DNA from: Ignavibacteriota bacterium
Lineage (GTDB): Bacteria; Bacteroidota; Ignavibacteria; UBA10030
NCBI GenBank assembly: GCA_963727825.1
Contig: CAVSHO010000012.1
Span: 12,061 to 76,060, forward strand
Reading direction: 5' to 3'
DNA length: 64,000 bases
This document shows, piece by piece, positions 614 through 61,002 of this stretch (position 1 is its first letter; each line of letters starts with the position of its first letter). A program made the position numbers and the translations under genes. The notes below the pieces were generated by a model that worked only from the letters and a program-made list of their open reading frames with translations, had not been told where the DNA came from and searched no databases.

Positions 614-733
614 CTGTCAGGACGCCCGCCCAACCCGCCACAAAGCATGGCGGGTAAACAAGACGGCAGGTAAGTAAATCCTGACAGCACACGGAATTTA
701 TTCCTTTCACCGTCAGGACGTAAGTCCTGACGG
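614..733. repeat. Two copies of a GTCAGGACG..TCCTGAC palindrome; the first (614-687) carries nested hairpin insertions at 625-670 and 634-658
   Basis: The empty copy CCGTCAGGACGTAAGTCCTGACGG at 710-733 can be compared directly with the interrupted copy at 614-687. Confidence 0.75.
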
Positions 734-742
734 CACAACCTT

Positions 743-3700
743 CTACTTCTTATCCAGCACTTCCCTTACCATTTTCAGAACTTGTGTGAAATCGTACGGT
801 TTGTACAGAAAATGTTGTACACTTACTTTCAGCAATTCCGATTTCATATTTGGGTCAATATACCCTGATGCCAAAATAATACGCTGATTCGGATTGATTT
901 TTTTGATCTTGTTGCACACTTCCAATCCGGATATATTAGGCAATCCGAGATCGGTAAGTACAAGAGCGATATCGTTTTTTCTTTCTTGATAGATTTTCAG
1001 CGCCGTAAATCCATCTCCGACAGAAAGAACTTTGTACCCCTTATCAATGAGCACCGTCTGAAGAGGCATCATTAGCATCTCTTCATCCTCTATAACCAAC
1101 AATGTCTCTGTTCCGCCCGGGATTTCTTCCATTGTTACTTCTTTTTTCACACTGACTGGCAATACGACTTGGGACGTAGGCAGATACAAGCGGAAGGTTG
1201 TTCCCCCTGCCTTGCCGGCAGGCAGGTTGCCGAGCTCACTGTCTACATCAATAAAACCTTTGTGAGATTGTATCACTCCGAACACTACTGACAATCCCAA
1301 ACCCGTTCCTTTTCCTATTCCCTTTGTTGTGAAAAATGGCTCGAAGATACGCTTACGTGTCTCTTCGGTCATTCCTTCGCCTGTGTCACTAACTTCGATG
1401 CAAACATAACTGCTTGCATCAGCGGTGGGATGCTGAGAACGCAGACTTACAACAGATACCATCCGCGTATTGATGGTGAGAACACCGCCCTTCGGCATTG
1501 CATCTCTTGCATTGATACAAAGATTCATCAATACTTGATGCAACTGCGAACGATCTGCATTGATGTATGAAATCGATTTATCGAAATTCTGTGAACAGGT
1601 TATAAACTTGGGGAATGTCTCCATAACCATAGTAACAGTTTCCATGACAATATCATTTACATTCAATGCACCGAATGCAGTTTCCGATTTTCTTGCAAAC
1701 AATAATATTTGCTGGACAAGTGTTTTGCCACGATCCACAGCTTTCGTGATGGTTTTCGTAGCAAGATCCAATTTCTTTGGATCGTCCTTAAACCTCTTGA
1801 TGCTTGTGTTGTATCCCAATATAATTCCAAGAATATTGTTAAAATCATGCGCTATCCCTCCGGCAAGCGTTCCTAATCCTTCCAGCTTTTGCATTTGTCG
1901 CAGTCCCTCTTCCATTTGCTTCTGCTCGGTGATGTCTTCCACCGTTCCATCGTAATACAAAGTTTTGCCTTGAGAATCGCGAATCGCTCGAGCGCTTTCT
2001 AGCACAAAGATTGCCGTGCCATCCTGACAAATCCATTTTGATTCATGACCAATTACCTCACCGTCTCTTTCGATCTTTTCAAGAAACTCTTTGCGTTGAT
2101 AGGATGATTCAAAACCATCTTTTTTAAGATTTCTTTCAGCAAGTTTTTCAAAAGATGAATAGCCGAGCATTTTTACTAATGCCAGATTTGCCAATAATAT
2201 GTTACCCTCGGGGGCCGTTCTATAAAGACCGATTGTGGCATTCTCATAAAGTGAACGAAAACGTAACTCACTTTCTCGTAACTCTTGCTCTACCCGATTG
2301 CGTTCTGTGATATCCTGTCCAAGAGCAATAGTGGAGATTATTGTTTTACCATCTGCAGTATATATATTTGCCGTATTCCATAATACAATGCGATTACTTC
2401 CATTCTTGCAACGAATAGGTATTTCGAAAGATATAAGGTTTTCTCCATCCGATGTTCTTGAAATAAGAGTTGATATTTCTTTTTGCTTTTCATCAGGAAA
2501 AAGCATTTCCGGATGTTTGCCAATGACATCGTACATTGTATAACCAGTCAACCGTTCAAATGCCAGATTGAACCTCGTGATCCTAATGGTATTATCCCAA
2601 ACCATAATAGGTGCATTCGTAAAACTAAACAGATTTTCAAGATAGTCACGAGTTTCACGTAATTCTTCCTCCGCCCGTTTGCGCTCGGTGATGTCGCGCA
2701 TACTGCCTACAATCTTCAACGGTGTGCTGTTGGCATCGAATTGTATCTTTGCAGAAATGGAACTCGGCACTTGTGAACCATCGCGGTTCTTTAGCATAAC
2801 CTCATAATCTGAAACACTGCCTTGTCCTTGTAATAATGCGAGGAAAGCTTCTCGCCCGCCGGCAATAGAATAGAAATCGTACATCGACTTCCCTATGAGA
2901 TCATCGCTATGATATTGTTCTTTCGAAATGATCTCGATGGAAGGGCTTACTTCGAGTATCGTTCCATCCAAAGCAGCCTCATAATACACATCCTGCACGT
3001 TCTCAAAAATGCCACGATATCTTTCTTCACTCTTGGACAGTGCTTCCTCTGCCCGCTTACGCTTGGTGATGTCCATTATATATCCAATAACTTTCACAAC
3101 ATTGCCGTTTTCCAGTATAGGTATTCCGATAGTCTGCACCCACAATTTTTCACCACGCGCATTAATAAACCTCGCTTCCAAGTCATAAGGTTCGCCATTA
3201 GTTATTGCTTTATTGAATGCATCAGAAACTAAAGACCTGTCATTCGGGTAATAAAAATTAGCTCCTTCTTCTGTCGAAGACAATTTGTCTTTCGCTATAC
3301 CATAGATATTGAAAATCTCATCTGAAAAATTTGCTTTGTGCGCTTGAACATCATATTCCCAACCACCGACTTTCGCAATTTTTTGAGTTTCATTTAATAA
3401 TTTTTCACTTTTTTTCAGTGTTTCTTCTGCCCGCTTGCGCTCGGTGATGTCAGTGGCAATACCCACGAGCGCGATATTTTGTCCTTGCTCATCTCGAACA
3501 AAGGATGTCGAAAGCGAAATCGGGAAGTCGCGGCCATCCTTCGTCCGATTCATCAGTTCGCCACTCCATCCTCCAGTTAATGTCGCAGCGAGAATATCAC
3601 GAGTAGTTTCGGGAGGATTGTTTAGTGACCGCACTACATTGATGTTCTTTCCCAGAATTTCGTGCTCACTATAACCATACGTTTTCAAAAATGCGTTGTT

Positions 3701-4577
3701 GACAAAGAGGACAATATTATTCAAGTCCGTGATACTCACGCACTCTGCGATGCTTTTCAGTGTATGAGCAAGGAGGACGACCTGTTTCTCAACCTGCTTG
3801 CGCTCGGTGATGTCGTGAACAATTGAATGCAGCACATTCTTGTTTCCGATTGAAATATTGCTGCTGAATACTTCAACGTCCCGTATCGAACCATCTTTCC
3901 GCCTGTGTTTGAATTCGAATTGAACTCTTTTTTGAGACTTTACTTTCTGCATTTCCTTATTAACTTCTTCGGGTGGGAGAACATTGATCTGATAGATTTT
4001 CATCCTTTTCAATTCTTCACAGTTCCAACCATAATAGACTGCCGCGGAATTATTGGCATCAATAATCTCTCCAGATTCCGGATCGATCAGTAATTTCACT
4101 GCGGCATGATCTTCGAATATTTTACGGAACTTTTCTTCGCTTTCGTGCAGTGCTTCTTCAGACTGCTGTCGTGATTTCTTTTCCTTTGATTCATCAAGCG
4201 CGCGTTTAATTGCTAAAGGAAGCCTAATTAATCGATCCTTTAAGACATAATCGATAGCTCCCTGCTTGATAAGTTCGATGGCAGTTTCTTCGCCGATTGA
4301 TCCGGAAACGCATATAAAGGGAACCTCCGGGCAGATATTCTTTGCTAATTTCAATGCTCCGTGCGCATCAAATCCGGGTAATTTGAAATCACTTAAAATG
4401 AGATCATATGTATGATTGTGAAGTAAAGATGTAAATTCCTTTTTCTTCTCAGGTACAATCCATACTGAGATCGTATCCTGCATCTAAAAGTAGTTCACGT
4501 ATGATCTCGATGTCTCGAGGCGAGTCTTCAAGATATAAGACTTTCAAAGCTATCTTATCTATGGTCTTCTTTTTCAT
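743..4577 (-). CDS. Hybrid sensor histidine kinase (REC-multiple PAS-HisKA-HATPase-REC) with an apparent frameshift near 4453
   Basis: ORF 743-4483 has DITERK PAS ends, [11 protein letters not shown]-box, GTGLGL G-box and a C-terminal REC. The N-terminal [25 protein letters not shown] starts at ATG 4577 in another frame. Confidence 0.92.
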
Positions 4578-4581
4578 TTGA

Positions 4582-4663
4582 TTAGATCCTCTCTGGCGGT
4601 AATTCATTAATGACCGCCAAAAACACTCCGACTTGTTTTTTTCACTTCAATAAAATCTTGAAA
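4582..4663 (-). pseudogene. C-terminal remnant of a single-domain response regulator (Rcp1-like)
   Basis: The minus strand reads FQDFIEV..KQVGVFLAVINELPPERI* across a frameshift, directly upstream of the kinase. No N-terminal part is present. Confidence 0.55.
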
Positions 4664-4983
4664 TAACATGCGATACAAGGCATACTATTGATATGAAAGT
4701 TAGCGAGTATTCTTTGCCGATGCGGGGAACAGTTGGATAACAATCTAATTATGTTTTTATACGTGTCCATATCCCTTACCTCCAATCCCTATAATTGGCG
4801 TATGAGTTATAACACTGCTGGTGTTAAACTAACAAACCACTGAGTGAAAAGCAAGATGCGGCTGCGCACTAAGTTGGGAGGGAGTTATACTCCCGACTGT
4901 ATTGCAATTTTTAGTTCGGGCTCCTTTTACATTTTATTGATGCGGGAAATAACCCTAAGTTGGGAGGGAGTTTTACTCCCGAC

Positions 4984-5206
4984 CCAATTCAGAACATTCA
5001 ACAGTAATAACCGAGTGATCATCTTAAAGATAATTCCTCGCACTTGTTCCGTTGTACAGGATTTTCGTGCAAGTAATCTAACTTCTGTTAAAAGAAATCT
5101 TTTGCATCATTTGCGATGGAATGGTAACAAACACGCTCCGCCATTCAACAATAGTGGTCGTAATAAAATAGAGATTAACGCCGGGGGTAATTTTCCAGTG
5201 TCTCAT
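4984..5206 (-). pseudogene. Internally deleted REP-associated tyrosine transposase (RAYT/TnpA-Y1) remnant
   Basis: From ATG 5206 it reads MRHWKITPGVNLYFITTTIVEWRSVFVT. Shifted frames then give FF*QKLDYLHENPV (catalytic Tyr motif) and SARNYL*DDHSVITVE. The central HUH region is missing. Confidence 0.75.
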
Positions 5207-5749
5207 ATTTTATTATTGCAATTTTTAGTTCGGGAGAACATCTCCCTCACAACTTTGGGTGGCTCGTGTAATTGTGTCGGTCTTCTGCCCGTGGAACCTT
5301 GATTTTGTGATCATGCTCCTACCTCCAACCCTTTCCCTGGTTTACAGAGATGATGCACATCCGGTACAAAAGTAATGCCTAAGTTGGGAGGGAGTTATAC
5401 TCCCGACTGTATTGCAATTTTTAGTTCGGGAGAACATCTCCCTCACAACTTTGAAATTCTTCGGAATGATTTGGTGCGAAATGGTGTCGGATATATGTAT
5501 GCTGAAACTTGCTTTTGTGTCCATACTCTTACCTCCAATCCCTATAATTGGTGTATGAGTTATAACACTGCTGGTGTTAAACTAACAAACCACTAAGCGA
5601 AAAGCAAGATGCGGCTGCGCACTAAGTTGGGAGGGAGTTATACTCCCGACTGTATTGCAATTTTTAGTTCGGGAGAACATCTCCCTCACAACTTTGGTAC
5701 AAAAGTAATACTCATCCAAGTGAATAGCAAGGTGTGAGCTGCACACAGC

Positions 5750-5784
5750 AAAGCCCGATTCCGTAGTTACAGAACCGGGCTTTT
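5750..5784. terminator. Intrinsic terminator-like hairpin downstream of sod, with a related copy at 436-470
   Basis: AAAGCCCGATTC...GAACCGGGCTTTT stem with A/T tails. Confidence 0.55.
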
Positions 5785-5818
5785 ATTGTTACTGATGACT
5801 CGTAACTTTTAACTGCTT

Positions 5819-6457
5819 TTACTTCCCAAGAACTAACTTCTTATAACGCTCGTTTATCCTTCCCCAATGCAGATTTGCGATGAAGTTATCTATAAATTTT
5901 GCTCGCGCGGGACCATCTTTGTGATAATATGCATGCTCGAAGACATCCAAAGGAATTAACGGCACTGCGCCCCAAATTGCGCCGTATTGATGTTCATCGA
6001 CGAGTGCATTTAATAAACGACCGGAGTAAAGACGATCGTACAGAAGCAATCCCCAACCGCCAAGCTTTGCCGATATTGCGGTCGCTTTAAAATCTGCTTT
6101 CCACGCGTCGAATGAACCAAAATCCTTTTCGATAGCCGCTTTGATTTCCAGACCCTTCGATGGATCGCCATCACCACCAAGAACATCCCAATAAATTTCA
6201 TGCAGAAGTGCACCGGAATGATTCCAACTGAAACGCCGTTTCAATTCTCCGATAACGCTGTAGTTGCCGTTTGCGGCAGAACGATCGGCCGTTTCTAGAG
6301 CTTTTTCAATATTGTTCAGTGCAGTTACGTATCCCTTTTGATGTGTATTATAATGCCAATCGGTTGTCTCCGGACTCATAACATTGGCGAGTAAATTTTT
6401 CGCTTCTTCATCTGAGTACGGGCGCTTGTTGAACTTCCATTCGTATGCCATAGCCAT
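5819..6457 (-). CDS. sod: Fe/Mn superoxide dismutase family protein
   Basis: HYNTHQKGYV, LHEIYW and DVFEHAYY metal-ligand motifs. Confidence 0.88.
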   Translation of the reverse strand: MAMAYEWKFNKRPYSDEEAKNLLANVMSPETTDWHYNTHQKGYVTALNNIEKALETADRSAANGNYSVIGELKRRFSWNHSGALLHEIYWDVLGGDGDPSKGLEIKAAIEKDFGSFDAWKADFKATAISAKLGGWGLLLYDRLYSGRLLNALVDEHQYGAIWGAVPLIPLDVFEHAYYHKDGPARAKFIDNFIANLHWGRINERYKKLVLGK

Positions 6458-6539
6458 TTCCTTTATATGAATGTTTGATCTTTAAGTTTCAATTCAAAGT
6501 TTATAACAAATGTATGGTGTGAAAGAGTTCCCGTAGTAA

Positions 6540-6932: not shown

Positions 6933-6944
6933 CGTAATACCCGG

Positions 6945-7340: not shown

Positions 7341-7369
7341 CCTCTTTTATTTATATTTTTGTTTAACAT

Positions 7370-11243: not shown

Positions 11244-12690
11244 TTATCCAACGCTTCCTTCCAAACTTACACCAAGCAATTTCTGCGCTTCAACTGCAAA
11301 CTCCATCGGTAATTCGCGGAATACTTCTTTGCAAAAACCATTGACAATCAGATTCACGGCATCCTCTGCAGAAAGTCCGCGCTGTTTACAATAGAATATT
11401 TGATCATCGCCAATTTTTGATGTTGTTGCTTCGTGCTCAGCTTTAGCGGAAGTATTTCTCACTTCGATATATGGAAACGTATGCGCGCCGCATTTGTCGC
11501 CTAACAACAGCGAGTCGCACTGGGAATAGTTACGCGCGTTCATTGCGGCTTTTTTCATCTCAACTAATCCGCGATAGGAATTCTGTCCGTGTCCTGCTGA
11601 AATTCCTTTCGAAACAATTGTGCTCTTCGTATTCTTCCCAATGTGAATCATCTTCGTACCGGTATCCGCTTGCTGGTAATTATTTACAACCGCGACAGAA
11701 TAGAATTCACCAACCGAATTGTCTCCTATCAGAAGCACACTCGGATATTTCCATGTAATCGCAGAGCCAGTTTCTACCTGTGTCCATGAAATTTTAGAAT
11801 TCACTCCTGCACATTTACCGCGCTTCGTTACAAAATTGTATATTCCTCCATCGTCCCTCCTTGTCGCCGGGGTACCAGTTCTGCACTGTCGAATATTTTA
11901 TCTTTGCATTATCTAACGCAACCAATTCTACCACTGCCGCGTGCAATTGATTTTTATCCCGCATTGGCGCAGTGCATCCTTCCAAATAGCTCACCTGCGC
12001 GCCTTCTTCCGCTACGATGAGCGTTCGCTCAAACTGCCCAGTTGCAACGGCATTAATACGGAAGTAAGTAGATAACTCCATCGGACAGCGAATGCCTTTG
12101 GGGATGAAGCAAAACGATCCATCACTGAACACTGCCGAATTCAGTGCAGCAAAATAATTATCATTCGCCGGCACGACAGAACCAAGATACTTTTTTACTA
12201 AATCAGGATGTTCACGAACTGCATCTGAAAACGAACCGAATATAATTCCGAGCTCTTTCAGTTTTTCTTTAAATGTTGTCGCTACAGAAACGCTATCGAA
12301 TACAGCATCAACAGCGACACCGGCGAGCCATTCTTGTTCACGAAGCGGAATACCAAGTTTATCATACGTCTTCAGCAATTCCGGATCAACTTGCGATAAA
12401 TCTTTGAGCAATGGCTTTTGTTTCGGTGCTGAATAATAGACAATCGCCTGATAGTCAATTGGCGGGTACTTTATATTCTGCCAGTGGGGTTCTTCCATTG
12501 TTTGCCAATGTCGGAATGCTTTCAACCGCCATTCAAGCAACCAAACCGGCTCCTGCTTTTTTGTAGAAATTAAACGGATGATGTCTTCATTTAAACCGGG
12601 AGGTGCTGAATCAGCTTCGATGTCAGTCACAAATCCATACTTGTATTCTTGTGCTGCAAATTCTTCTATAGTATTTGTTTCATTGTTCAT
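11244..12690 (-). CDS. sufB: Fe-S assembly protein SufB, split by an apparent extra base near 11850
   Basis: The N-part ([24 protein letters not shown]) and C-part ([24 protein letters not shown]) join as [17 protein letters not shown] when one base is removed. Confidence 0.93.
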
Positions 12691-12712
12691 AAATTTCTCA
12701 GTCTGCAGGTCG

Positions 12713-13117
12713 TTACACAATCTGCTCCAATGTTGTGTTTTCAAGAAGCAAATTTAGATTGTGCTGCATTTTCCCAAGCGGTTTGCGAATCGTGCAGGCG
12801 TTAAAGATAGAACAATTCTCTCCATCTTTCGCGTAACATTCAGCAATCGTTGGCTTTTCTTCTTCAATTACACTTATTATTTGTGAGACCCGTAATTCAT
12901 TCGGTTTCTTCGCAAGCGAATACCCGCCGTGCATTCCTTGAGTTGAAATAACAACTCCGGCTTTAGTCAGTTTCTGTAAAATCTTCGCGAGCAGCTCATA
13001 CGAAATATCGAACTCCACTGCAATTTCTTTCGCAGTAAATACATGTCCTTTTGGGTTCATCGCCATATGCCGAAGAGCGATCAAACCATATTCCACTTTT
13101 TTTGAGAGTTGAAGCAT
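12713..13117 (-). CDS. Rrf2-family transcriptional regulator (IscR/SufR-like) heading the suf operon
   Basis: [10 protein letters not shown] and [10 protein letters not shown] motifs plus three C-terminal Cys. Confidence 0.9.
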
Positions 13118-27892: not shown

Positions 27893-27995
27893 TGCCGAAG
27901 GGGGGACTCGAACCCCCACTCGATTTGAGTCGAACCTCGTAGAACGAGGCAAGCTGTATTTTGAGTCCAGTTTATCCCGACAAAGTCGGGACGCG
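27893..27995 (-). pseudogene. Partial 3' copy of tRNA-Leu interrupted by two hairpin insertions (27935-27953, 27971-27991)
   Basis: Matches the 3' portion of the tRNA at 28243 onward except for one substitution and the inserts CCTCGTAGAACGAGGCAAG and TTTATCCCGACAAAGTCGGGA. Confidence 0.88.
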
Positions 27996-28238
27996 CCTTT
28001 TCGTCAGTAACGAGTTCAATTCATAATGACCCGGTCCACTTTTAAGAAATTTCTCTCTTTTTCTTGCTTGCTGTCGATTAGGACATTCTTCTGTAAGAAG
28101 TAGTTGGAACGGTCGTCTATTTTTTGTCGATGGTACTTTTCCCTGATTGTGACGTATTAACCGCTTCTCTACATCTTCCGTCATTCCGATGTAAAGATTA
28201 TTATCTTTTAGAGATTTTAATACGTACACAAAAAACAT
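27972..28238 (-). CDS. Small stand-alone GIY-YIG nuclease
   Basis: VYVLKS..LYIGMT..RLIRHNQG..TKNRRPF..AR.REKFLKSG, 88 aa. Confidence 0.9.
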   Translation of the reverse strand: MFFVYVLKSLKDNNLYIGMTEDVEKRLIRHNQGKVPSTKNRRPFQLLLTEECPNRQQARKREKFLKSGPGHYELNSLLTKRRVPTLSG

Positions 28239-28242
28239 TCAG

Positions 28243-28328
28243 TGCCGAAGGGGGGACTCGAACCCCCACTCGATTTGAGTCGAACTGGATTTTGAGTCCA
28301 GCGCGTCTACCAGTTCCGCCACTTCGGC
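28243..28328 (-). tRNA. tRNA-Leu(CAA)
   Basis: GCCGAAGTGGCGGAACTGGTAGACGCGCTGGACT-CAA-AATCCAG..GGTTCGAGTCCCCCCTTCGGCA with a long variable arm. Confidence 0.95.
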
Positions 28329-29450: not shown

Positions 29451-30291
29451 TCACTTGCTATGGCGTGAAATAGCGGAATCGTCAAACGGCTGGTAACTCC
29501 CCAGCACGCGCACAAAAGAACAAACTTCTTCTAAATGATTTAATGCCTGACTCAGTGGATCTCGTTTAGGTATCCCTTCCACATCCAAATAGAAGAGATA
29601 TTCCCACGGTTTGCCGATTATCGGACGTGATTCAATTTTCAGTAAATTAATATCCCGCAATGCAAATACAGCAAGCGCTTTGAAGAGTGCGCCGGGAATA
29701 TCTTTTGCTGCAAATACGATTGAAGTCTTGACTTTGCCGAGCGGTTGAACCTGTTTTCGCGAGAGTGCAATGAAGCGTGTGAAATTGCGATGGTCACTCT
29801 CAACGTTTCGTTCCAGAATATGCAGTCCGTACGCACGCGCTGCTTGTTCGCTGGCGATAGCCGCTGCATCATTGCGTTTTCGTTCCTGGATAAACCGAGC
29901 AGCCGCTGCCGTATCATGCACGGCTTCCACTTTTACATCTTTTTAGTGTGCTGAGAAAGTTCTCGCACTGGCCAATCGCTTGCAATTGCGAGTAGATCGT
30001 GCGAATGCTATTCCGTTTTGCTTCGGGCAAAGCCATCAAATGCAGTTCGATGCGGAGTTTTACTTCACCGATTATAAAAAGCTTATGCTTCAGAAGAAGA
30101 TCGTACACCTGATGGATACTGCCGAATAGCGAATTCTCAATCGGCACAATGCCAAAGCTTGCGGGATGATGTTCGGCATCTGAAAAGACATCGGAAAAAG
30201 CAGGCAATGGTTTTAATATAGCATGGGCCCCAAAGAATTTTCGCGCTGCTTGTTCACTAAACGCACCTGGTTCACCCTGATAAGCGATCAT
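29451..30291 (-). CDS. pheA: Prephenate dehydratase, frameshifted in a homopolymer near 29940
   Basis: IAYQGEPGAFSE, VPIENS, NFTRF and LKIESRP spread over two overlapping ORFs. Confidence 0.9.
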
Positions 30292-32546: not shown

Positions 32547-32590
32547 AAGGTAAAGCTCATCAGTATTGATGAGTTTTTTAAATGATGTGA

Positions 32591-32836
32591 TTCCGCGATA
32601 GCTCAATGGTAGAGCATGCGGTCCGATCATCGCACAAGCGATGATCGAGATCTCGTCCCGATAAAATCGGGACGGACTGTTAACCAGACTTTGAAATAGG
32701 GAATTATTTTTCATTCCGCGATAGCTCAATGGTAGAGCATGCGGTCCGATCATCGCACAAGCGATGATCGAGATCTCGTCCCGATAAAATCGGGACGGAC
32801 TGTTAACCAGACTTTGAAATAGGGAATTATTTTTCA
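32591..32836 (+). repeat. Two 123-bp tandem units, each a 5' half of tRNA-Asn with a 55-bp multi-hairpin insert
   Basis: TTCCGCGATAGCTCAATGGTAGAGCATGCGG starts at 32591, 32714 and 32837 (period 123). The insert at 32622-32676 is absent from the real tRNA. Confidence 0.92.
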
Positions 32837-32837
32837 T

Positions 32838-32912
32838 TCCGCGATAGCTCAATGGTAGAGCATGCGGCTGTTAACCGCAGGGTTGTAGGTTCGAGTCCTA
32901 CTCGCGGAGCCA
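32838..32912 (+). tRNA. tRNA-Asn(GTT)
   Basis: TCCGCGATAGCTCAATGGTAGAGCATGCGGCT-GTT-AACCGCAGGGTTGTAGGTTCGAGTCCTACTCGCGGAGCCA. Confidence 0.96.
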
Positions 32913-32974: not shown

Positions 32975-33240
32975 TTGTTTTATTTATATATACTCATCTG
33001 AATTTAATGGAATGTTTTAAGTTGGTATTAGTCCGAAAATCTTAGAACAGCGGCTTGAATTTACCATCTTTCAATAGGTAATGGATTCACAGCACGATAT
33101 CGTCCCTGGAAATTAGTATACACGAAAGGATATCCAACGCGACAGCTGGCTCGAGTGCTGAAAAGAAAATCAAAACAAGGAAAAGCAGATCGATGATTTA
33201 ACATTTCATCTAATGATGTTTGGGATTATTCGGATTATTA
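32975..33240 (+). pseudogene. Decayed GIY-YIG nuclease gene
   Basis: Fragments ENLEQRLEF, GNGFTARYRPWKLVYTKGYPTRQLA and AEKKIKTRKSRSMI, broken by stops and frameshifts. Confidence 0.75.
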
Positions 33241-33260
33241 ACCATTCCGTCGATTTCTGA

Positions 33261-33343
33261 CTGTAGGGTTGTAGGTTCTCCCGCTCCATCATAATGGAAC
33301 GGGACTATTAACCCCGACGTTTTATGTCGGGGCTCTCGGAGCA
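33261..33343 (+). pseudogene. Degenerate 3' copy of tRNA-Asn with two hairpin insertions
   Basis: AGGGTTGTAGGTTC [TCCCGCTCCATCATAATGGAACGGGA] CTATTAA [CCCCGACGTTTTATGTCGGGG] CTCTCGGAGCA. Confidence 0.7.
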
Positions 33344-36087: not shown

Positions 36088-36149
36088 TTGATGTTACGCA
36101 CTAATAATTTTTTATTAAAGGATTTATAGTTCTTTATATGATTGTCCAC

Positions 36150-36478
36150 CTCCCTATCCCGACCCGATTTTGCATCGTGTGGGGATTTCCCCTCCCCGCC
36201 TGCTGCGGGCAGGCTCAAACGAGGAGGAGCGTATTAAAGTAATTCCACGAAGTGAAATTACAATAAATGCGCAGATTTTTCTTTAAAGGGGTGGTTTACT
36301 TTGTTTTATTATATTCCATGTTTATCAGCATAAAAGATGGCTTTGCGTAACATTAGTTGCTAGAGACCTCTGAAAAACATTATTTGTCATTTCGATCGCA
36401 GGGAGAAATCTTTCTTTTTATTAAGATTTCTCAGTCTCCCGATCGACGTTGTCGTTCGGGATTCTTCGAAATGACAAT
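36150..36478. repeat. Intergenic cluster of REP-like palindromes, including a TGTCATTTCGA..TCGAAATGACA doublet with inserted hairpins
   Basis: CCCGCCTGCTGCGGGCAGG near 36195-36213; doublet about 36385-36477 containing TCCCGATCGACGTTGTCGTTCGGGA. Confidence 0.6.
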
Positions 36479-41103: not shown

Positions 41104-41181
41104 TGTGGGCCCTGCTGGGCTCTCCGCCAAAGGCGGATGCGCCTTCCACCAAAAAATGGCGGACAAGCTGGCGCAGAACCA
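41104..41181 (-). pseudogene. 3'-end copy of tRNA-Ile2 with nested hairpin insertions
   Basis: TGTGGGCCCTGCTGGGCTC [TCCGCCAAAGGCGGATGCGCCT [TCCACCAAAAAATGGCGGACAAG] CTGGCGCA] GAACCA. Confidence 0.8.
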
Positions 41182-41195
41182 CGGCTTATTTTTTG

Positions 41196-41269
41196 TGGGC
41201 CCTGCTGGGCTCGAACCAGCGACCCGCAGATTATGAGTCTGCTGCTCTAACCAACTGAGCTAAGGGCCC
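41196..41269 (-). tRNA. tRNA with CAT anticodon, most likely tRNA-Ile2 (lysidine)
   Basis: GGGCCCTTAGCTCAGTTGGTTAGAGCAGCAGACT-CAT-AATCTGCGGGTCGCTGGTTCGAGCCCAGCAGGGCCCA. The acceptor stem is Ile2-like and not initiator-like. Confidence 0.92.
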
Positions 41270-41314: not shown

Positions 41315-41595
41315 CGACCCGCAGATTATGAGTCTGCTGCTCCCCGCCCGACTGCACGATGCAATCGTGCGGGCAGGTAACCAACTGTTTACCCGCCGTG
41401 CCTTACCTTTTGGCGGGAGCTAAGGGCCCGAATGTTAACTCAAAATTAACAATCTCTTATCAATTTTTGAAGATTTAGGACCCGCAGATTATGAGTCTAG
41501 ATGCTCCCCGCCCGACTGCACGGAATGCATACTCGTGCTGGGCAGTTCCCAACTGATTTACCCGTCCGTGCCTTATTTTATGCCGCGAGAGCTCG
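41315..41595 (-). repeat. Two tandem (about 163 bp) 5'-portion copies of tRNA-Ile2, each with two hairpin insertions
   Basis: GACCCGCAGATTATGAGTCT at 41221, 41316 and 41479. Inserts at 41343-41377 and 41388-41417. Spacer 41270-41314 repeats at 41431-41477. Confidence 0.85.
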
Positions 41596-45529: not shown

Positions 45530-45964
45530 GTGGAAGCATTTATGAAGACAGCTATTGAAGAAGCCAGACTTAGTTTGCAAGAAGGCGGTATTCCCATTGG
45601 TTCTGTACTAGTACGTGATGACAAGATAATCGGGCGTGGGCATAACCGCCGTATTCAGAATGGCGATCCGCTCGCTCATGCAGAAATCGAATGCATCCGG
45701 AATGCCGGACGCATAGGTTCGTATTCCAATACAATTCTCCTCTCGACTCTCATGCCATGCTATCTTTGTTCCGGTGCAATTGTGCAGTTCGGGATAGAAA
45801 AAATAATAGTCGGTGAATCTCGGACATTCAAGGGAGATATAGAATTTCTTAAAGACCACTGGGTTACAGTGGAAGATTGGGATATGGACGAATGTTTTGA
45901 ATTAATGGAAGGGTTTATTAAAAAGAATCCAACTCTCTGGAATGAAGATATCGGGAAACTATAA
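45530..45964 (+). CDS. Cytosine/nucleoside deaminase (Zn-dependent, CDA fold)
   Basis: HAE and PCYLC motifs; WNEDIG C-terminus. Confidence 0.88.
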   Translation: MEAFMKTAIEEARLSLQEGGIPIGSVLVRDDKIIGRGHNRRIQNGDPLAHAEIECIRNAGRIGSYSNTILLSTLMPCYLCSGAIVQFGIEKIIVGESRTFKGDIEFLKDHWVTVEDWDMDECFELMEGFIKKNPTLWNEDIGKL

Positions 45965-45980
45965 CAGCGAGCATTTAACA

Positions 45981-46478
45981 ATGAGCAACGAGCTAAAAAC
46001 GACAAACGATGAACGGCAACAATTTATGCGTGAAGCAATTCGGCTTTCGATTGAGAATGTTCGATCAGGTAAAGGAGGGCCTTTCGCTGCTGTAGTGGTC
46101 AAAGACGGAACAATCATCGCGCGAGGCACGAACATCGTCACCTCTGCTATCGATCCAACAGCACATGCCGAAGTTATTGCAATCCGCGAGGCGTGTAAAA
46201 CGCTTGGTAAATTTCAGTTGAATGGATGCGAAATCTATACTTCCTGCGAACCCTGCCCAATGTGTCTTGGAGCTATTTATTGGGCTCGACTGGAACGGGT
46301 TTTCTACGGCAATACGAAACAAGATGCAGCAGAAATAGGATTTGACGATTCGTTTATCTACGAGGAACTTCCTAAAAAGATCAGCAACCGGAGTATCCCA
46401 ATGGTGCAGGTAATGCATGAAGAAGCACTTGCTGCCTTTAATGAGTGGAAAGAAAAACCGGATAAGATTGAGTATTGA
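45981..46478 (+). CDS. guaD: Guanine deaminase (CDA fold, B. subtilis type)
   Basis: GGPFAAVVV, DPTAHAEV, SCEPCPMCLGAIYWA and GFDDSFIY. Confidence 0.88.
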   Translation: MSNELKTTNDERQQFMREAIRLSIENVRSGKGGPFAAVVVKDGTIIARGTNIVTSAIDPTAHAEVIAIREACKTLGKFQLNGCEIYTSCEPCPMCLGAIYWARLERVFYGNTKQDAAEIGFDDSFIYEELPKKISNRSIPMVQVMHEEALAAFNEWKEKPDKIEY

Positions 46479-49728: not shown

Positions 49729-49840
49729 GTCCCGCATAGCGGGACGAGGTATTTTGTCACTCCCGCGTACGCGGGAGTCTAACGTTCTGGATTCCTCCCG
49801 ACTTTGTCGGGACGGGAATGACGCCGCAAGCGGCGGGGTA
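49729..49840. repeat. REP-like doublet TGTCACTCCCGCG..CGGGAATGAC with an inserted TCCCGACTTTGTCGGGA hairpin and flanking hairpins
   Basis: Direct inspection. The insert is the reverse complement of the hairpin at 27975-27991. Confidence 0.7.
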
Positions 49841-52497: not shown

Positions 52498-53971
52498 TTA
52501 TTTGTCCTTTCCATCTAATTCTTGTTTTTGTCTCTTTTCTTTTTGATCTTTTCCCTGCTTCATCAATATCTCAATTTCCCCAATTGTTCGGGGCGCGGCT
52601 TCCGAAAGAATTTTGCATCCGTTCTCGGTAACAAGTATATCATCTTCAATTCTGATCCCAATGCCCCAATACTTTTTATTACAGTTACTGCTATCAGGAA
52701 TATATAATCCGGGTTCGATTGTAAAAACCATCCCCGGCAATAGCCTTTCTGTCGAACCAACGTCATGCACATCCAATCCTACGAAATGACTGACACCGTG
52801 CGGGCAATATTTTTTCACATCATTTTTATCTTGAATGATGCCAAGCTTTATTAATCCTTCACCGAGAACCTCCATCGCCTTTTTTCCAGACACATTCATC
52901 GGCGTATTTGATTTTACTTCTTTAATTGCTGAATTCTGTGCGTTCAAAACAAGTTCATAAATTTCCTTTTGTGCAGGAGAATATGTTCCATTCACGGGAA
53001 TTGTGCGCGTTACATCAGCTGAGTAACCATGGTATTCCGCGCCAATATCCATCACTACCAACTCTCCACTGTTCATTTGCCGACGATTTGCATCGTAATG
53101 AAAGTTCAATGCATTAGGCCCTGAACCGATTATAGATGGGAAGCCGTAATATTCACATCCACTCCGCGTGTAGCAATATTCGACGGCAGCTTGAAGCTCG
53201 TATTCGTACATACCAGGCTCACAGCTTTTCATTGCTTCAATACATCCAGACACCGTAGCATCTATAGCCTTCTGCATCAGGTACTAATTCATCATTGGAT
53301 TTCACGGCGCGCAAATCACTCACTAACGATCCTGAATTTCTTATCGTAAGGTTCGGATATTTTTCTTCTAACCCTTTTCTTACCTCGCGTACAGACACAA
53401 ATTTTGTATTTGAAATTGGGTCAAAAAGAATATCTGGTAATGATGGCGTGTAGTAGAGAATATTTATTGATTTAAGAATTTGCGGTAGAAGCTCTTTCAA
53501 TTTTTCGGTCGTTAATACAGCGCTTTTTGTTCCTTCGGCACCGAAACCAAGAACTTGGTTTGCTCCCTCCAAGCCAAGATTAGGACCAATCCAGCTTTTT
53601 GTATATTCATTGACAAAAAGGATTTCCTTCACTATTGTGATACTATCTATTCGTATTCCATCCGATGCAAGAATAAGCGTGCTGTTCGTTTCATTACAAC
53701 CAGTCAGATACAGAAAATTATCATTCTGTCTAAATTTGTAATCAGTATCTCCATTCCGATTGTCGGGAACATTTGCACAGAAAACAGCAACAGAGCCGGA
53801 ATCCATCCTTGCAATTACTGCTGCACGGCGCTGTTGATACTCTTGCGGCTTTATACCGTCCGTATCATAAATGCCGTATTTCGCAAAAGGCGAGTTGACA
53901 ATAATTTGACTTAATGCGAATGAAACATCTAGGAAAAAAAGGAGAATGAGGGTAGAATAAATATTTTTCAT
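52498..53971 (-). CDS. pepP: Xaa-Pro aminopeptidase with signal peptide, frameshifted near 53281
   Basis: FRQNDNFLYLTG (AMP_N domain), DVTRT, HFVGLDVHD, TIEPG and GIRIEDD over two ORFs. Confidence 0.88.
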
Positions 53972-54929: not shown

Positions 54930-55148
54930 AAATATTCTCCTTTTTTAGAATTGTGAATAAGAACAATAATCACAGGCGAAGCCTTCATGAATTAGGATAA
55001 GCTAATATGTTGCCGACCGAACACCAACTCCTGAAGCATGGTAGGAATAATTTAAACCGTCTGCAAGTGTGGAAACAAGAATGGAATGTTTTCAATTGTC
55101 TCTTTTTCTTCTTACTTTTATGCCGTAAAAATTATCGAGGGTTGAATT

Positions 55149-56864: not shown

Positions 56865-57002
56865 ATAAGACATTCTATCCTATATAGCATAGTTAATTGC
56901 TTCCTAATTTGAAGAAAAATATCATTTCTGCATTTGGAATAATTATGTCAAGAAAATATTTTTAGGCTTAAAAACAACATGAAATTATTTTTCAAAAAAA
57001 AC

Positions 57003-57031
57003 TTGACAATTAAGCACTTGAGATATATCTT
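57003..57031 (+). promoter_or_regulatory. Near-consensus sigma70 promoter
   Basis: TTGACA-17 bp-TATCTT. Confidence 0.65.
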
Positions 57032-57036
57032 ATGAC

Positions 57037-57110
57037 GTGCAGTCTCCCCGACTGCACATAGTTAGCCTCCCTATACCCCGGCGTCTGGTAGTGCGTCGGG
57101 GTATTTTTTT
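57037..57110 (+). ncRNA. Candidate small RNA of about 75 nt
   Basis: Starts just after the promoter. 5' hairpin GTGCAGTC-TCCCC-GACTGCAC, C-rich linker, terminator ATACCCCGGCG..CGTCGGGGTAT plus T-run; no ORF. Confidence 0.55.
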
Positions 57111-57274
57111 TGCCGTTCATTAGACTAACTTTCTAATTAAAATATTGCCCGTGCTTGCCCTGCTTGCGTAGGGCACTACGGCAGGTAGGTATGTATTTTG
57201 CAGTGAGCCGCCCCGTCTTCTTTTTGGCGGACTCATTCTATCTGCTTGAGCGCCTGTTTAGTCGAGGAGGTTGT

Positions 57275-58081
57275 TTATCTTTTCTGCTGATTATATTCGT
57301 TCACATACTTTGCAATTTCCACCATTGGAGCAATCCATATCTGTCCTTCGTTTTCTTTGAGGAAATGTAATAATTTGCTATGTGCTTCCAACGAAACATT
57401 TATTGAATGCTCACCGCCAACTCCATGAAAAAGAAATACAATAAGAGAGTTAGTATCCATTGCTTTCTTTACCAATGCTATAAGCGCATCGCCAGATTCG
57501 CCGTTTATCATATAGGATCCGATATCATATAAATCAATTTCATTGATTCTTTTCATTTTTCCTTCTATACCCCTTGCTGCAATAAACTTACTCTTTACTT
57601 TCGATACATAAGAAGAATCGCCTGCGAGAGTATCTCCGCATGGATATGCAAATGTTCTCATCGTTTTTCCATCGATAGCATTCAGTAAAACATTGGCCAT
57701 CTCAATTTCGTCGTTCATTCGTTGTATGGAATATGTATGGAGATCATAATCTGGCTGAACCCATTTTCTATCCGGTCTATTCCCTTCGCAAGGATGAAAT
57801 AATGTGTGATTTCCAAGTTCATTACCTTTTGCCGCCACCGTTCTCCATTCGGCTGACCGGTCGCGAAACCCCTGGAAAAACCCTGATATATAAAATGTAG
57901 CCTTAAGTCCCAGAGAATCTAAAATCGGAATTACATTGTCTAAATCTACATTCAAAGCATCGTCATATGTGAGACAAACTGCACATTTCTTATTATGCCA
58001 TACGTTATTTTCTTGAGCTTGTACAAAAGTTGCCGAAAGGATAATAATAAAACAAAGCAATATTAATATTTGTTTTATCAT
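57275..58081 (-). CDS. Secreted polysaccharide deacetylase (CE4)
   Basis: LTYDD, ELGNHTLFHP, FAYPCG and FLFHGV. Confidence 0.88.
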   Translation of the reverse strand: MIKQILILLCFIIILSATFVQAQENNVWHNKKCAVCLTYDDALNVDLDNVIPILDSLGLKATFYISGFFQGFRDRSAEWRTVAAKGNELGNHTLFHPCEGNRPDRKWVQPDYDLHTYSIQRMNDEIEMANVLLNAIDGKTMRTFAYPCGDTLAGDSSYVSKVKSKFIAARGIEGKMKRINEIDLYDIGSYMINGESGDALIALVKKAMDTNSLIVFLFHGVGGEHSINVSLEAHSKLLHFLKENEGQIWIAPMVEIAKYVNEYNQQKR

Positions 58082-58359
58082 AGTATAGTCAATCCATAAT
58101 TTCGTTTTCAAGTGAAAGGATTCCTTAGTTTATGATTTTACTTTTTCTGAGAAACTCTCTTATCGGTTGGATATGTACGATCAAATGCTGCGGGACTGTA
58201 GCGTTCATAATTTAATAATAGTACTAAATAAACCGAGTTTCAAGTAGATTACTTTTAATTTACATCTAGATCGCTGCAAGCCATTAATTTTACGGTGGGT
58301 TCAATGATAAATAAAGCATCTATATATGAAATGTTAATGATAAATCTGTACGATGATAT

Positions 58360-58968
58360 TCATACTCCCTTTGATCCCTTAATACCAAGGGTCAACCAAA
58401 TAAAACGTGTAAAGGTACGATGCTGGACAATAACCGACAATCCTGCCTCATTGAAACATTGACTTGTCTCTACGGGGCTCTTTACTTTGGAATGTCGAAT
58501 GAGCTTCGCAAGCCACAGGGGCTTGGATATGTCAGTCAAACAGAAGCAGCCTCCTAAGCGAAGAACTCGATTTATCTCTCGAAGAGCTGCAGGTTGGTCA
58601 CTCCAATGATGAAATGAAATGCTGCTTAATACGATATCGACGGAGGAATCAGCTAATGGCAGCGACTCTGCCGCTCCTAAATAAACCGTGGCAAATGGTA
58701 ATCGACCACGGGCTAGTTCGACCATACCCTCTGCTGGGTCAATACCAAGCAGTTGCGCCGATGGGTAAAGCGCACGTGCTTTGTGCAACAACTGCCCCGT
58801 TCCACATCCAATATCAAGGACGGTCTTTGGCTCAGCGATTTCATTGGTAACCACATCGAGCATTTCTGTGTGCACCCGATCGGCATATCGTTGAATCCAT
58901 GAGTCGTCATAAGTGCGAGACCAGCGGTTGAAATGCTCAATATCCTTTTTGCTGTTGGTGGCATTCAT
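58360..58968 (-). CDS. Class I SAM-dependent methyltransferase
   Basis: VLDIGCGTG, AESLP and SFHHW. Confidence 0.9.
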   Translation of the reverse strand: MNATNSKKDIEHFNRWSRTYDDSWIQRYADRVHTEMLDVVTNEIAEPKTVLDIGCGTGQLLHKARALYPSAQLLGIDPAEGMVELARGRLPFATVYLGAAESLPLADSSVDIVLSSISFHHWSDQPAALREINRVLRLGGCFCLTDISKPLWLAKLIRHSKVKSPVETSQCFNEAGLSVIVQHRTFTRFIWLTLGIKGSKGV

Positions 58969-59022
58969 AAGTCGAAAACTTTCATTGTAATATAATTAGA
59001 GGTTTAATTGTCATCTGCTGTG

Positions 59023-59040
59023 GCCTAACGGATAGGCGCT
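59023..59040 (-). mobile_element. Possible attC R' remnant upstream of the methyltransferase
   Basis: GCCTAACGGATAGGCGCT versus ACCTAACGGATTGGCGCT at 62248-62265. Confidence 0.55.
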
Positions 59041-59089
59041 CCGCCAACTAGCCCACTACGCATTCTGGCCGGAAAGACTGCGGACAAGT

Positions 59090-59326
59090 AAGTCCCGATT
59101 TTATCTTTGATCAAATCGAGAATCCCGTACAGCGGGACTTAACGTACCGGAGCCTGCCCCGCGTTCTTTCGCAGGGCTCATCCGGTCAACTTGTCACGAA
59201 GTGATGGAGACTGTGTAAAAAGTCTTTATTGTCACTCTGAGCGTAGCGAAGAGTCTCGTTTTCAATTCAGATTCTTCACTTCGTTCAGAATGACGAGACC
59301 CTTTTTCTGGTTTTGACACAAACTCG
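59090..59326. repeat. Cluster of hairpins and a TGTCACTCTGAGCG..TTCAGAATGAC REP-like doublet
   Basis: TCCCGTACAGCGGGA, CCTGCCCCGCGTTCTTTCGCAGGG and a doublet at about 59230-59294. Confidence 0.55.
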
Positions 59327-59411
59327 ATGCCTTCGGCAAGGGAGCTACTGATTAGGCAGTTGCAATCGATAAAATGAATGCAATTATGACCTGCACGTCG
59401 AATATACCGGT

Positions 59412-60836
59412 TTATTTTTTACTGAATGAATTGCCTTTATATTCAGGAGTGTCGGTCATAGTGCAGGTAGCTTTGTCTCCGTTTACATCAAGGAGCATAA
59501 GTTTTGGATCCTTAGCAGAATAAGGAGTCCAGACATCCTTCTCTTGACCATTCGGATTTCCGAACTTGGCAAAATTTGTCCAGTAATCTACAATTTTGTT
59601 GCTCAACGCTTTGTCGCCTTCAGTGAAAGGGCGCCAGCTGTGTGAATATGAATGAAACACATACCACAAATCAGAAGAGTGGAAAGCTCCGCTTGAATCA
59701 CCCGGTAATTGGCGTGCAAATAAATATGCAAAAGCAGGCTTGCTGCTTTTTTCTGCACGCAGGGCACAGAAATCTCTAACTGCTTTTGTCATATCCATTA
59801 AATCGTTCGCAGTGTATCCAAAGATATAAGGGATATCCGCAATTTTGCCGGCGGTCGCTTCATCACTGAAGGTACCTTCCAGCATATAATTGTCGACAAC
59901 CGGACCCCAGAAAATTCGGTTTTTAGTGGCAGCCGTGTAGTCTTTTGACATTTGCAGAAGTTCATCGAAAGAAAGTGCACGCATTTCTTTCAATGTAGTT
60001 TTCTTAAAATAGTCCATCATATTCTTGTTCGCTAACTGGGCAGTGTCGAACGAACTACTACCCATTCTAAAGTTGCCCAAGCCGCCGCCGCTCATACTTA
60101 TTGCATGGCTGATCAGGTTCTTGGACAGCGGTGAAGCACACAATGACTGAACACTTCCTGCACCTGCGCTCTGACCAAATATAGTTATGTTGTCTGGATC
60201 TCCGCCGAACTGTTGGATGTTATTATGAATCCATTTTAGTGCTGCAACCTGGTCTAATAAACCATAATTGCCCGAAACACCATGAGGACTCTCAGCCGAT
60301 AAAAGCGGGTGTGAGAAAAAGCCCATAACGCCAAGACGGTATGTTACCGTAACTAAAATGACACCTCGTGTAGCCCATTCCTCGCCACCATCCATTTCGG
60401 GTTCAAAGGCAAAACCTTCACGATAACCGCCACCGTGTATCCACATGGCAACAGGGAGTTTCTTATTCGTTTGGCCTGCAGCGGGAGTCCAAATATTCAG
60501 ATAGAGACAGTCCTCGCCGAATGGAACAGAGCCGCTGGCTCGCCATTCCTTGCCGTAAAAACTCTTCGGATCCCATGTTACTTGCTCGGCAGCAGCACCG
60601 TATTTATCTGCTGCTTTTACACCTTCCCAGGATACTACAGGCTGTGGCTCCTTCCATCGCAAGTCATCAACCGGAGGCGCTGCAAAAGGGATGCCCTTAT
60701 ACGCAATAATACCCTTCGTTGGAGTCTGTACTCCAATTACCTTACCACCATCAATGGTCAATACAGGATTAAAATCTTTGCTTAGGACAAATCCCGATAA
60801 CATGCATATCAAAAGAAACAATAATAATTTTTTCAT
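59412..60836 (-). CDS. Type-B carboxylesterase, secreted
   Basis: GIPFAAPP, EDCLYLN, HGGG and GQSAG nucleophile. Confidence 0.93.
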   Translation of the reverse strand: MKKLLLFLLICMLSGFVLSKDFNPVLTIDGGKVIGVQTPTKGIIAYKGIPFAAPPVDDLRWKEPQPVVSWEGVKAADKYGAAAEQVTWDPKSFYGKEWRASGSVPFGEDCLYLNIWTPAAGQTNKKLPVAMWIHGGGYREGFAFEPEMDGGEEWATRGVILVTVTYRLGVMGFFSHPLLSAESPHGVSGNYGLLDQVAALKWIHNNIQQFGGDPDNITIFGQSAGAGSVQSLCASPLSKNLISHAISMSGGGLGNFRMGSSSFDTAQLANKNMMDYFKKTTLKEMRALSFDELLQMSKDYTAATKNRIFWGPVVDNYMLEGTFSDEATAGKIADIPYIFGYTANDLMDMTKAVRDFCALRAEKSSKPAFAYLFARQLPGDSSGAFHSSDLWYVFHSYSHSWRPFTEGDKALSNKIVDYWTNFAKFGNPNGQEKDVWTPYSAKDPKLMLLDVNGDKATCTMTDTPEYKGNSFSKK

Positions 60837-60957
60837 AAGATACCCAATTTTTGATTAATGGAATAACAACGTTAATTACAAAGTAAATATAATTAAAAAG
60901 TTCTATCGAATCTAAAAAAATTATAAAGCTACGGACTAATCACAAAAGGCTGAAAAA

Positions 60958-61002
60958 CGTCAGCTTGTCCGAAGGACTCCTTTGGAGAGCCGCTGGTTAG
61001 GG
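60958..61002 (-). mobile_element. Terminal attC, truncated and interrupted by a 20-bp hairpin
   Basis: GTCAGCTTG [TCCGAAGGACTCCTTTGGAG] AGCCGCTGGTTAGGG. Confidence 0.75.

Follow-up and report, generated by a model that had tools for sequence, protein, structure and literature searches.

Head-tagged mini-hairpins as probable short inserted repeats in a bacterial genome

The window analysed here, a 64-kb stretch of a bacterial genome (positions 12061-76060 of contig C12 in the assembly that we call G000, 3.12 Mb in 14 contigs with 41% G+C), carries a set of very short hairpins in which a 4-nt head (TTTA, CTTG or CCTG) is joined directly to a GC-rich stem-loop, for a total length of 18-35 nt. 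We conclude that these tagged mini-hairpins are very probably inserted, repeated units. They interrupt their hosts exactly, the head lies within the inserted segment, they fall into sequence families, their targets are biased, and both recent and old copies can be recognised. Their stems are perfect or near-perfect and 5-10 bp long, and the whole corresponds to the short palindromic unit of about 20-40 bp that is typical of repetitive extragenic palindromes (REPs). Tentatively, we propose that they are non-autonomous REP-like elements that may be moved as single strands by an HUH-type enzyme. The comparison set comprised 15 further genomes of the same genus (16 with G000) and 15 from other genera of the order. 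The congeners are about 70-90% identical to G000 in the genes compared, and a T9SS sorting domain found in a protein domain scan suggests the Bacteroidota/Ignavibacteriota group.

Eight hairpins of this kind had been cited in a first-pass annotation of the window, and every cited sequence was found in its place. All eight fold as single-stranded DNA into the GC-rich hairpins that had been described, with the tag unpaired in seven and z-scores of -2.1 to -7.7. The further claim, insertion without target duplication, proved exact for seven of the eight but not for the hairpin at 57154-57175 (plus strand), in whose fold half of the supposed tag is paired; no empty reference was found for it, and its insertion is not supported. 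The tRNA-Leu gene at 28242-28328 provides the uninterrupted reference for two of the inserts: the displaced copy of its 3' part at 27893-27997 equals the gene plus two clean additions of 19 nt and 21 nt. The first is a CTTG-tagged element directly after the anticodon stem (27935-27953, minus strand), and the second is a TTTA-tagged element on the opposite side of the same stem (27971-27991, plus strand), where the complement TAA is the stop codon of a GIY-YIG open reading frame (ORF; 27975-28238, minus strand). Similarly, the tRNA-Met gene at 41195-41269 is the reference for two inserts in a tRNA-Met 5' fragment, namely a CCTG-tagged 35-nt element with an outer and an inner stem in the D-arm region (41343-41377, minus strand) and a TTTA-tagged element of a conserved 30-nt subfamily in the D-loop (41388-41417, plus strand). 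A decayed duplicate of both lies at about 41500-41590.

The remaining three inserts were delimited in other ways. A two-hairpin composite (41123-41175) occupies the T-loop position of a tRNA-Met 3' fragment, between GGGCTC and GAACC, and contains a CTTG-tagged 23-nt element with one G-T pair in its stem (41145-41167, minus strand); the references are uninterrupted relatives of the composite elsewhere in the genome. A TTTA-tagged 25-nt element with the stem CCCGCC/GGCGGG (634-658, minus strand) lies in the loop of an outer CCTG-tagged element with a damaged 5' arm (625-670, minus strand), which in turn lies, as parsed by eye, within a host hairpin at 616-685; the uninterrupted copy of that host hairpin at 710-733 served as the reference. 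The nesting reported earlier is thus real in both places. Finally, a CCTG-tagged 21-nt element (1206-1226, minus strand) adds seven codons in frame to the HATPase_c part of a 1246-aa PAS/histidine-kinase ORF (743-4483). Its references are the genes of relatives L002, L003, L005, L007 and L008 (L004 and L006 were left out), and a 21-nt gap stands opposite the insert in all five of these alignments listed.

Is the head a genuine part of the element? As a class, the YYTR tag of the first-pass annotation does not stand out at GC-rich hairpins with stems of at least 5 bp (279 observed versus 255 expected), but TTTA, CTTG and CCTG are enriched (CATG appears twice), and genome-wide over-representation beside hairpins holds for this narrower set within a defined stem class. 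The genome contains 40 loci of the form YCCGCC-N3-18-GGCGGR, and 24 of them carry TTTA (13), CTTG (8) or CCTG (3) on one side only; none is tagged on both sides, 16 have none of the three tags, and genome 4-mer frequencies predict about 1.1 tagged sides among the 80. Because two of the 24 overlap, the distinct sites number 23. At stems of at least 6 bp the three heads are 2.5-4.7-fold enriched. The mixed heads TTTG and CTTA do not occur among the 40 loci, and the 150 matches listed for the relatives, counted by eye, comprise 138 with CAAG or TAAA versus 10 with CAAA and 2 with TAAG; head positions 1 and 4 therefore co-vary. The earlier remark that the tags follow a G, often as CAG, describes the tRNA-fragment cases of the window but not the elements in general, for G precedes the tag in 7 and A in 11 of the 24 tagged loci. 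Two broader surveys were set aside. Plain 4-mer enrichment at all hairpins with stems of at least 5 bp was swamped (8035 hairpin ends versus 5553 in a shuffled genome), its top heads, GGTC and AGTC, being those of the REP types that flank genes for REP-associated Y1 transposases (RAYTs), and a permissive regular-expression count of tags followed by 5-bp stems returned 599 matches that were mostly noise and were not used.

The position of the head relative to the insertion boundary was read from a flank test, in which the 12 + 12 nt around every 10-70-nt segment were joined and the join was looked for elsewhere in the genome. The test also returns tandem duplications and chance joins, which were removed by filters on distance and stem length. 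There were 58 grouped events, and where the segment was at most 40 nt long and had a perfect stem of at least 6 bp, the head was inside the inserted segment in seven of eight events, three of the seven being copies of one host plus insert. The head is likewise within the inserted segment in the histidine-kinase ORF and in two cases described below, at C9:141200 and in a HemN-like gene. A self-BLAST of the assembly gave only 21 indel loci, because it contains few long repeats.

The elements recur across the genus and beyond it. A pattern of hairpin plus YAAR has 19 matches in G000 against one for the reversed-pattern control. Every one of the 16 genomes of the genus yields 2-30 matches, with 0-1 for the controls, and the 15 genomes from other genera of the order yield 0-14 each, 10 of them having at least one. 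Loops are conserved across species in a 24-25-nt type, in the 30-nt type to which 41388-41417 belongs and in a 29-nt type that occurs in several families of the order. One and the same 30-nt element is found in three unrelated hosts: the tRNA-Met fragment, the loops of RAYT-flanking REPs, and attC sites of G015, a genome in a single contig, 99% complete, in which 7 of 23 elements are identical 30-mers. G000 itself holds about 49 tagged elements over five stem classes, some of which may be chance matches. Like REPs, which are often found downstream of ORFs, they are mostly extragenic, 42 of the 49 lying outside open frames of at least 150 codons. Six of the seven others have lengths divisible by three, a count to be read with the caveat that 24 nt is the commonest element length anyway; for the element at C7:138603, in a 3391-codon frame, five relatives offered no usable homologue. 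The elements do not resemble intrinsic terminators, for on their 3' side all 24 tagged loci continue into host sequence that lacks a run of T, only C9:141200 (tttt) coming close. The titles, abstract openings and passages of the literature surveyed contain no description of TTTA-, CTTG- or CCTG-headed hairpins or of hairpin inserts in attC sites.

How old are the insertions? Two are recent gains with orthologous empty sites in relatives. One is the insert at 1206-1226 in the histidine-kinase ORF. The other is the element at C9:141200, where G001 and G010 carry the same host repeat of about 140 nt, empty exactly where G000 has 24 extra bases; G013 and G006 have no host repeat there either. Three public sequencing runs were found, all from one study and available as assembled contigs only, which cannot show absence. 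Contig X1 spans 1081-1259 with no difference, and the insert at 1206-1226 is therefore present in it. The match to contig X2, 95% alike, breaks off at 1205, immediately before the insert, and leaves 10 letters unaligned; this break hints at an empty relative.

Other insertions are older. The objection that the hairpins might be ancestral in orthologues applies in part, since the tRNA-Leu inserts are common to two other species, but relative to the tRNA they remain insertions. G010 carries the fragment with both inserts identical, and G006 carries it in a region that is about 78-80% identical, where in one insert a compensatory pair has changed CCTCG/CGAGG to CCCCG/CGGGG and the head CTTG has become TTTA. 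Among the other congeners, nine have the intact tRNA only and four give no pattern match. The tRNA-Met fragment array is missing at the matched tRNA-Met loci of 13 relatives. A patchier distribution is seen in the HemN-like gene, where an 18-nt CTTG element (C9:209811-209828) is shared by G000 and, in the gene tree (L142-L157; split support 94/99), by six genomes of the other clade; the six genomes on the G000 side of the split do not have it. The seventh genome of the other clade, G003, has a different 12-nt segment at the site, and G013 and G004 were left out, their loci not covering it. The pattern requires either that the element was gained twice at one base, that it was lost exactly several times, or that a short patch was converted. 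The stem of the element is kept in G008 and G012 by compensatory changes, a T-A closing pair and a T-A inner pair, respectively; pairs are broken in G010 and G001.

Conservation of this kind raises the question of whether the hairpins are selected structural modules that serve the host or the carrier element, for example by marking RNA 3' ends or stabilising RNA, by donating stop codons, by disrupting tRNA-like folds or by blocking recombination between direct repeats, and that spread mainly by gene conversion with rare illegitimate events. The tRNA-Leu inserts retained in G010 and G006, with a compensated pair despite the divergence of the region, and the kept HemN-site stems are what such modules would show. 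The TAAA end that gives the GIY-YIG ORF its stop codon also fits, as do REP ends that give stop codons and REPs within ORFs, both reported in passages of the REP literature (PMC3733652), and 19 of the 23 elements of G015 sit at two fixed points of homologous attC sites. Against this, the same element occurs in non-homologous hosts (tRNA fragment, REP loop, attC site, ORFs), the third copy of the tRNA-Met fragment has decayed stems, the HemN-like stems are broken in two genomes, and a first arrival at a new site is beyond the reach of gene conversion. We regard selection on structure as an unlikely account of the elements as a whole.

Where do the elements insert? The bias to hairpin-forming targets inferred from the window is upheld genome-wide: 6 of the 24 tagged elements lie between perfect host stems of at least 5 bp, compared with 4.8% of 20,000 random positions; judged by eye, several others are enclosed by host stems with imperfect pairing. 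Four of the TTTA elements have perfect host stems, and all four abut the 3' arm of the host; a fifth, C11:397152, with imperfect pairing, looks alike by eye. The hosts are loops of RAYT-flanking REPs, two hot spots in attC sites, tRNA fragments beside GIY-YIG cassettes, and ORFs. In the first of these, mini-hairpins are located inside the REPs or in the spacer of REP pairs; REPs of the GGGAGA and GGGAGT types flank RAYT-like genes on contigs C7, C8 and C9, and elsewhere in the genome their loops host TTTA elements. We note that the window holds two arrays of these same types (14-371 and 4880-5685), in which GGGAGA..TCTCCC and GGGAGT..ACTCCC alternate about 150-200 nt apart, like bacterial interspersed mosaic elements. 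Other hosts are present at 49729-49830 and 36140-36215 as dense chains of GTCCCGC..GCGGGAC, CTCCCGCG..CGCGGGAG and ATTCC..GGAAT, the last with an inner TCCCGAC hairpin; the identical 17-nt TCCCGAC hairpin is preceded by three different 4-mers. A G-rich dispersed repeat (GAGGAGGGGAAAT...) in these stretches is a further host, and a CCTG-tagged 19-nt element with the stem CCCGC/GCGGG (36195-36213, minus strand) lies inside it and is absent from three genomic references.

Fragments of tRNA genes form a second group of hosts. The window contains three tRNA genes, and the genome contains 11 small GIY-YIG ORFs in or beside tRNA genes with duplicated tRNA fragments, many of which carry hairpin inserts, recurrently in the T-loop between GGTTC and GA. 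Examples of these ORFs, which are 81-157 aa long and each accompanied by a duplicated tRNA part, lie at 27893-28328 in the window and at C9:166600-167350, C7:94100-94900, C10:75100-75500 and C8:159600-160000. Some of the cassettes are tandem, at least 13 copies standing in a row at C2:365-369 kb in G002. The unit looks like a cassette that targets tRNA genes and rebuilds the one it interrupts, and the titles, abstract openings and passages of the literature surveyed hold no description of GIY-YIG cassettes in bacterial tRNA genes. Elsewhere in the window, two tandem tRNA-Asn 5' fragments lie upstream of the intact gene (32590-32912), each with a 55-nt three-hairpin composite in its anticodon loop (32622-32676, plus strand, and about 32745-32799). 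A near-identical copy of the composite, with compensatory changes, is found in a tRNA-Ser fragment on contig C7. Downstream of tRNA-Asn, at 33040-33340, inspection by eye suggests a GIY-YIG remnant and a T-arm fragment broken after GGTTC.

Could the hairpins be by-products of these cassettes, the nuclease cutting structured DNA and hairpin oligonucleotides being captured in repair or brought by the cassette? The frequency of hairpin inserts in the duplicated fragments, the recurrent T-loop position and the two tRNA-Leu inserts that accompany the cassette in three species would agree with such an origin. We nevertheless find it improbable. G002 combines 25 GIY-YIG matches with 6 elements and G014 combines 3 with 24, and element counts within the genus do not follow those of GIY-YIG genes (rho -0.23). 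Moreover, the inserts in the histidine-kinase ORF, the HemN-like gene, REP loops and attC sites have no adjacent GIY-YIG gene, and the T-loop inserts mostly have no TTTA, CTTG or CCTG head.

The third group of hosts belongs to a chromosomal integron. A conserved motif of about 70 nt, bounded by RYYYAAC and GTTRRRY, lies between small genes that are unrelated but point the same way, both on contig C11 and at the right end of the window. The cassette array on C11 (145-26101) adjoins an integron integrase (C11:29893-30834; 447.9 bits against a cut-off of 265, TIGR02249), and the window at about 57.2-62.4 kb looks like part of a cassette array, with attC hosts at about 57.2, 60.96 and 62.37 kb. 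At the second of these, an untagged 20-nt hairpin of the TCCGAAGG family (60968-60987, plus strand) directly follows a CTTG that belongs to the host attC site. Two insertion points in attC sites hold at least four different hairpins, and the 19 elements that G015 has at these points share a single orientation relative to attC polarity (19/19). The number of attC cores ranges from 0 to 116 per genome across the genus.

An integrase that acts on folded single strands, adjoining a cassette array whose sites have two such hot spots, might itself insert the elements as micro-cassettes or at secondary sites. This we consider very improbable: the elements appear by eye to have no RYYYAAC/GTTRRRY core sites, some genomes are rich in elements and have few attC cores (G012 with 2 cores and 28 elements, G014 with 5 and 24, G017 with 0 and 14), others are poor in elements and have many cores (G011 with 43 and 4, G002 with 43 and 6), and the two counts are uncorrelated within the genus (rho 0.007). 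Bacterial primases use trinucleotides such as CTG and TTA. The idea that the hairpins are selected as signals for lagging-strand priming (of the phage G4 or plasmid ssi type, with a hairpin beside CTG, TTG or TTA as primase start) is scarcely credible, even though all three heads end in such a trinucleotide and the head is single-stranded directly 5' of the stem in seven of the eight hairpins cited in the window, as it gives no account of arrival at new sites.

We return to the proposal that the mini-hairpins are REP-like elements moved in trans. Under this proposal, an HUH/Y1-type enzyme would recognise the head plus hairpin, cut the element exactly at both ends as single-stranded DNA and paste it into DNA that is transiently single-stranded and folded, such as REP loops, attC sites, tRNA genes or their fragments, and small palindromes in genes. 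Exact cut-and-paste of a single strand would leave no duplication at the target. Inserted copies would then be passed on vertically or travel with their hosts (attC cassettes, REPs and GIY-YIG cassettes), and the stem of some of them may be kept by selection. From the build of the elements and the nature of their targets we infer both the single-strand stage and the type of enzyme; a head plus a hairpin is the architecture read by Y1 enzymes in REPs, as described in passages of two studies (PMC3733652, PMC6006769).

Which enzyme could be responsible? The suggestion of a RAYT as local mobiliser fails for the window, which encodes none; none of the nine Y1_Tnp matches of G000 lies on contig C12, and the window has only arrays of the REPs that flank RAYT genes elsewhere. 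Five of the ORFs were scanned against NCBIfam, in which one IS200-type protein and one RAYT exceeded the cut-offs and three more RAYT-like proteins fell just below them. Nor do element counts track either suggested enzyme within the genus. Over all 31 genomes the correlations with element counts are higher (rho 0.51 for Y1_Tnp, 0.45 for GIY-YIG and 0.71 for attC), solely because of the contrast between the genus and the other genera.

Several observations weigh against the proposal. None of the nine Y1 genes is flanked by mini-hairpins as its own REPs; the flanks of these loci carry other REPs (of the AACCTTGTCAAGGTT type, the GGGAG..CTCCC type and the GTAG/CGTC type), and mini-hairpins appear there only as inserts inside them. 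Within the genus, Y1_Tnp and element counts are barely correlated (rho 0.21, with RAYT subclasses pooled). G015, with its 23 elements, has a single Y1_Tnp match at E 7.9e-4, and G013, with 27 elements, a single match at E 2.3e-4; conversely, G023 and G024 have 6-7 Y1 matches and 0-1 elements, and high-scoring Y1 genes are missing from the element-rich genomes G004, G005, G013 and G015. Unlike IS200/IS605, the inserts have no conserved target tetranucleotide beside them, either in the flank-test events or at the 24 tagged loci. The copy number, about 49 in five stem classes, is modest, and many copies, including most of those in G015, may have multiplied with their hosts and not by movement of their own. 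Finally, no excision or circle product was seen in the public runs, which consist of assembled contigs only.

One gene invites a more specific suggestion. TTTA elements lie within about 320 nt of a TnpA gene in G000 (C7:128204-128641), one of them 265 nt upstream, and in G014 a related gene has an identical TTTA element on either side. The G000 protein has the DHIH and YIRNQKEHH motifs of TnpA subclass 1.2, which passages of Quentin et al. 2018 (PMC6006769) describe as low-copy, lacking typical ends and largely confined to Cyanobacteria and Bacteroidetes. It would be attractive, though we think it rather improbable, if the mini-hairpins made up a third class of heads next to GTAG and CGTC, ranked with the smallest mobile DNAs known (18-30 nt), were specialised to invade folded single-stranded DNA (including attC sites and tRNA-derived structures) by means of an orphan TnpA of subclass 1.2 (DH[IV]H ... 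YIxNQxEHH), and tuned cassette recombination through attC structure. Cyanobacteria, one of the two groups to which the subclass is largely confined, is also the phylum of the comparably tiny mobile hairpins that Elhai and colleagues reportedly described in Nostoc, and the present genome seems to fall in the other, the Bacteroidota group.

Two further observations in the window concern other genes. Three genes, SufB-like, prephenate dehydratase and Xaa-Pro aminopeptidase (11244-12744, 29451-30291 and 52498-53971), are each broken into two ORFs; no hairpin lies at the breaks, which may reflect frameshifts, pseudogenes or assembly errors. At 45530-46478, two adjacent cytidine/tRNA-adenosine deaminase-like ORFs (144 and 178 aa) share about 20 nt.

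Few bacterial repeats are commoner than REPs, whose route to new sites is still debated. The mini-hairpins offer a compact natural system in which to address this question, with exact pairs of empty and filled sites, strict orientation, and three heads that can stand in for one another and co-vary at their two ends. Their targets are all DNA that folds when single-stranded, and element-rich genomes nearly devoid of Y1 transposases exist. The elements thus raise the questions of whether a tag plus hairpin needs a RAYT at all and whether the inserts affect attC function, the fate of tRNA fragments and protein loops.

How do the elements compare with known systems? With the GTAG and CGTC REPs, as characterised in passages of Di Nocera et al. 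2013 (PMC3733652), they share a length of 20-40 bp, a 4-nt head joined to a palindrome, stem families with compensatory variants, insertion in other palindromes, occasional in-frame copies in ORFs, and ends that give stop codons. They differ in their heads, TTTA, CTTG and CCTG at 24 of the 40 loci against none with GTAG and none with CGTC, and in having no 3-nt tail, a lower copy number, hosts that include attC sites and tRNA fragments, and no transposase gene flanked by them; inverted dimers were not noticed among them, although no systematic search for doublets was made. REPINs and their RAYTs (passages of Bertels and Rainey 2011, PMC3116915, and of Quentin et al. 2018, PMC6006769) are likewise a case of non-autonomous hairpin repeats whose movement is attributed to a Y1 HUH enzyme acting in trans, and RAYT-like genes are also present in G000, but these genes carry other REPs of their own, with the mini-hairpins inside those. 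In REPtrons the RAYT gene is flanked by the same repeats in inverted orientation, an arrangement found at none of the nine Y1 loci, and repeat abundance follows the cognate RAYT, which is not the case in the 16 genomes of the genus (rho 0.21), some being rich in elements with almost no Y1 gene. IS200/IS605 and its miniature derivatives, according to passages of the same work (PMC6006769), show the same absence of target duplication, recognition of a single-strand hairpin and a cut at a tetranucleotide beside it. They have two different ends and insert 3' of a fixed tetra- or pentanucleotide, whereas the mini-hairpins have one hairpin and varying adjacent bases; two distinct subterminal hairpins with a fixed target, as in the miniature derivatives, were not found among them. 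As for integron attC sites, their R''/R' core sites were not seen by eye in the elements, and the hosts in the window and on contig C11 have them.

The Nostoc repeats SDR4-6, reportedly treated by Elhai and colleagues in 2008, are said to be 21-27 nt long, hairpin-forming, mobile, nested in other repeats and associated with no known enzyme. Going by this description, they are similar to the mini-hairpins in size and behaviour; they belong to another phylum (Cyanobacteria). A passage in PMC4390886 places the insertion of SDR5 exactly after the third base of HIP1, before the fourth. A fixed target like HIP1 was not seen for the mini-hairpins. Rickettsia palindromic elements are about 100-150 bp long, several times longer than the mini-hairpins, and are not known to carry a 4-nt head. 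They are likewise palindromic and, as cited in passages of PMC3733652, lie in frame in genes that are probably still functional. Since the mini-hairpins have a REP-like architecture with other heads, no cognate RAYT, and attC sites and tRNA fragments as hosts, we place them with the REPs in kind, outside the GTAG and CGTC families.

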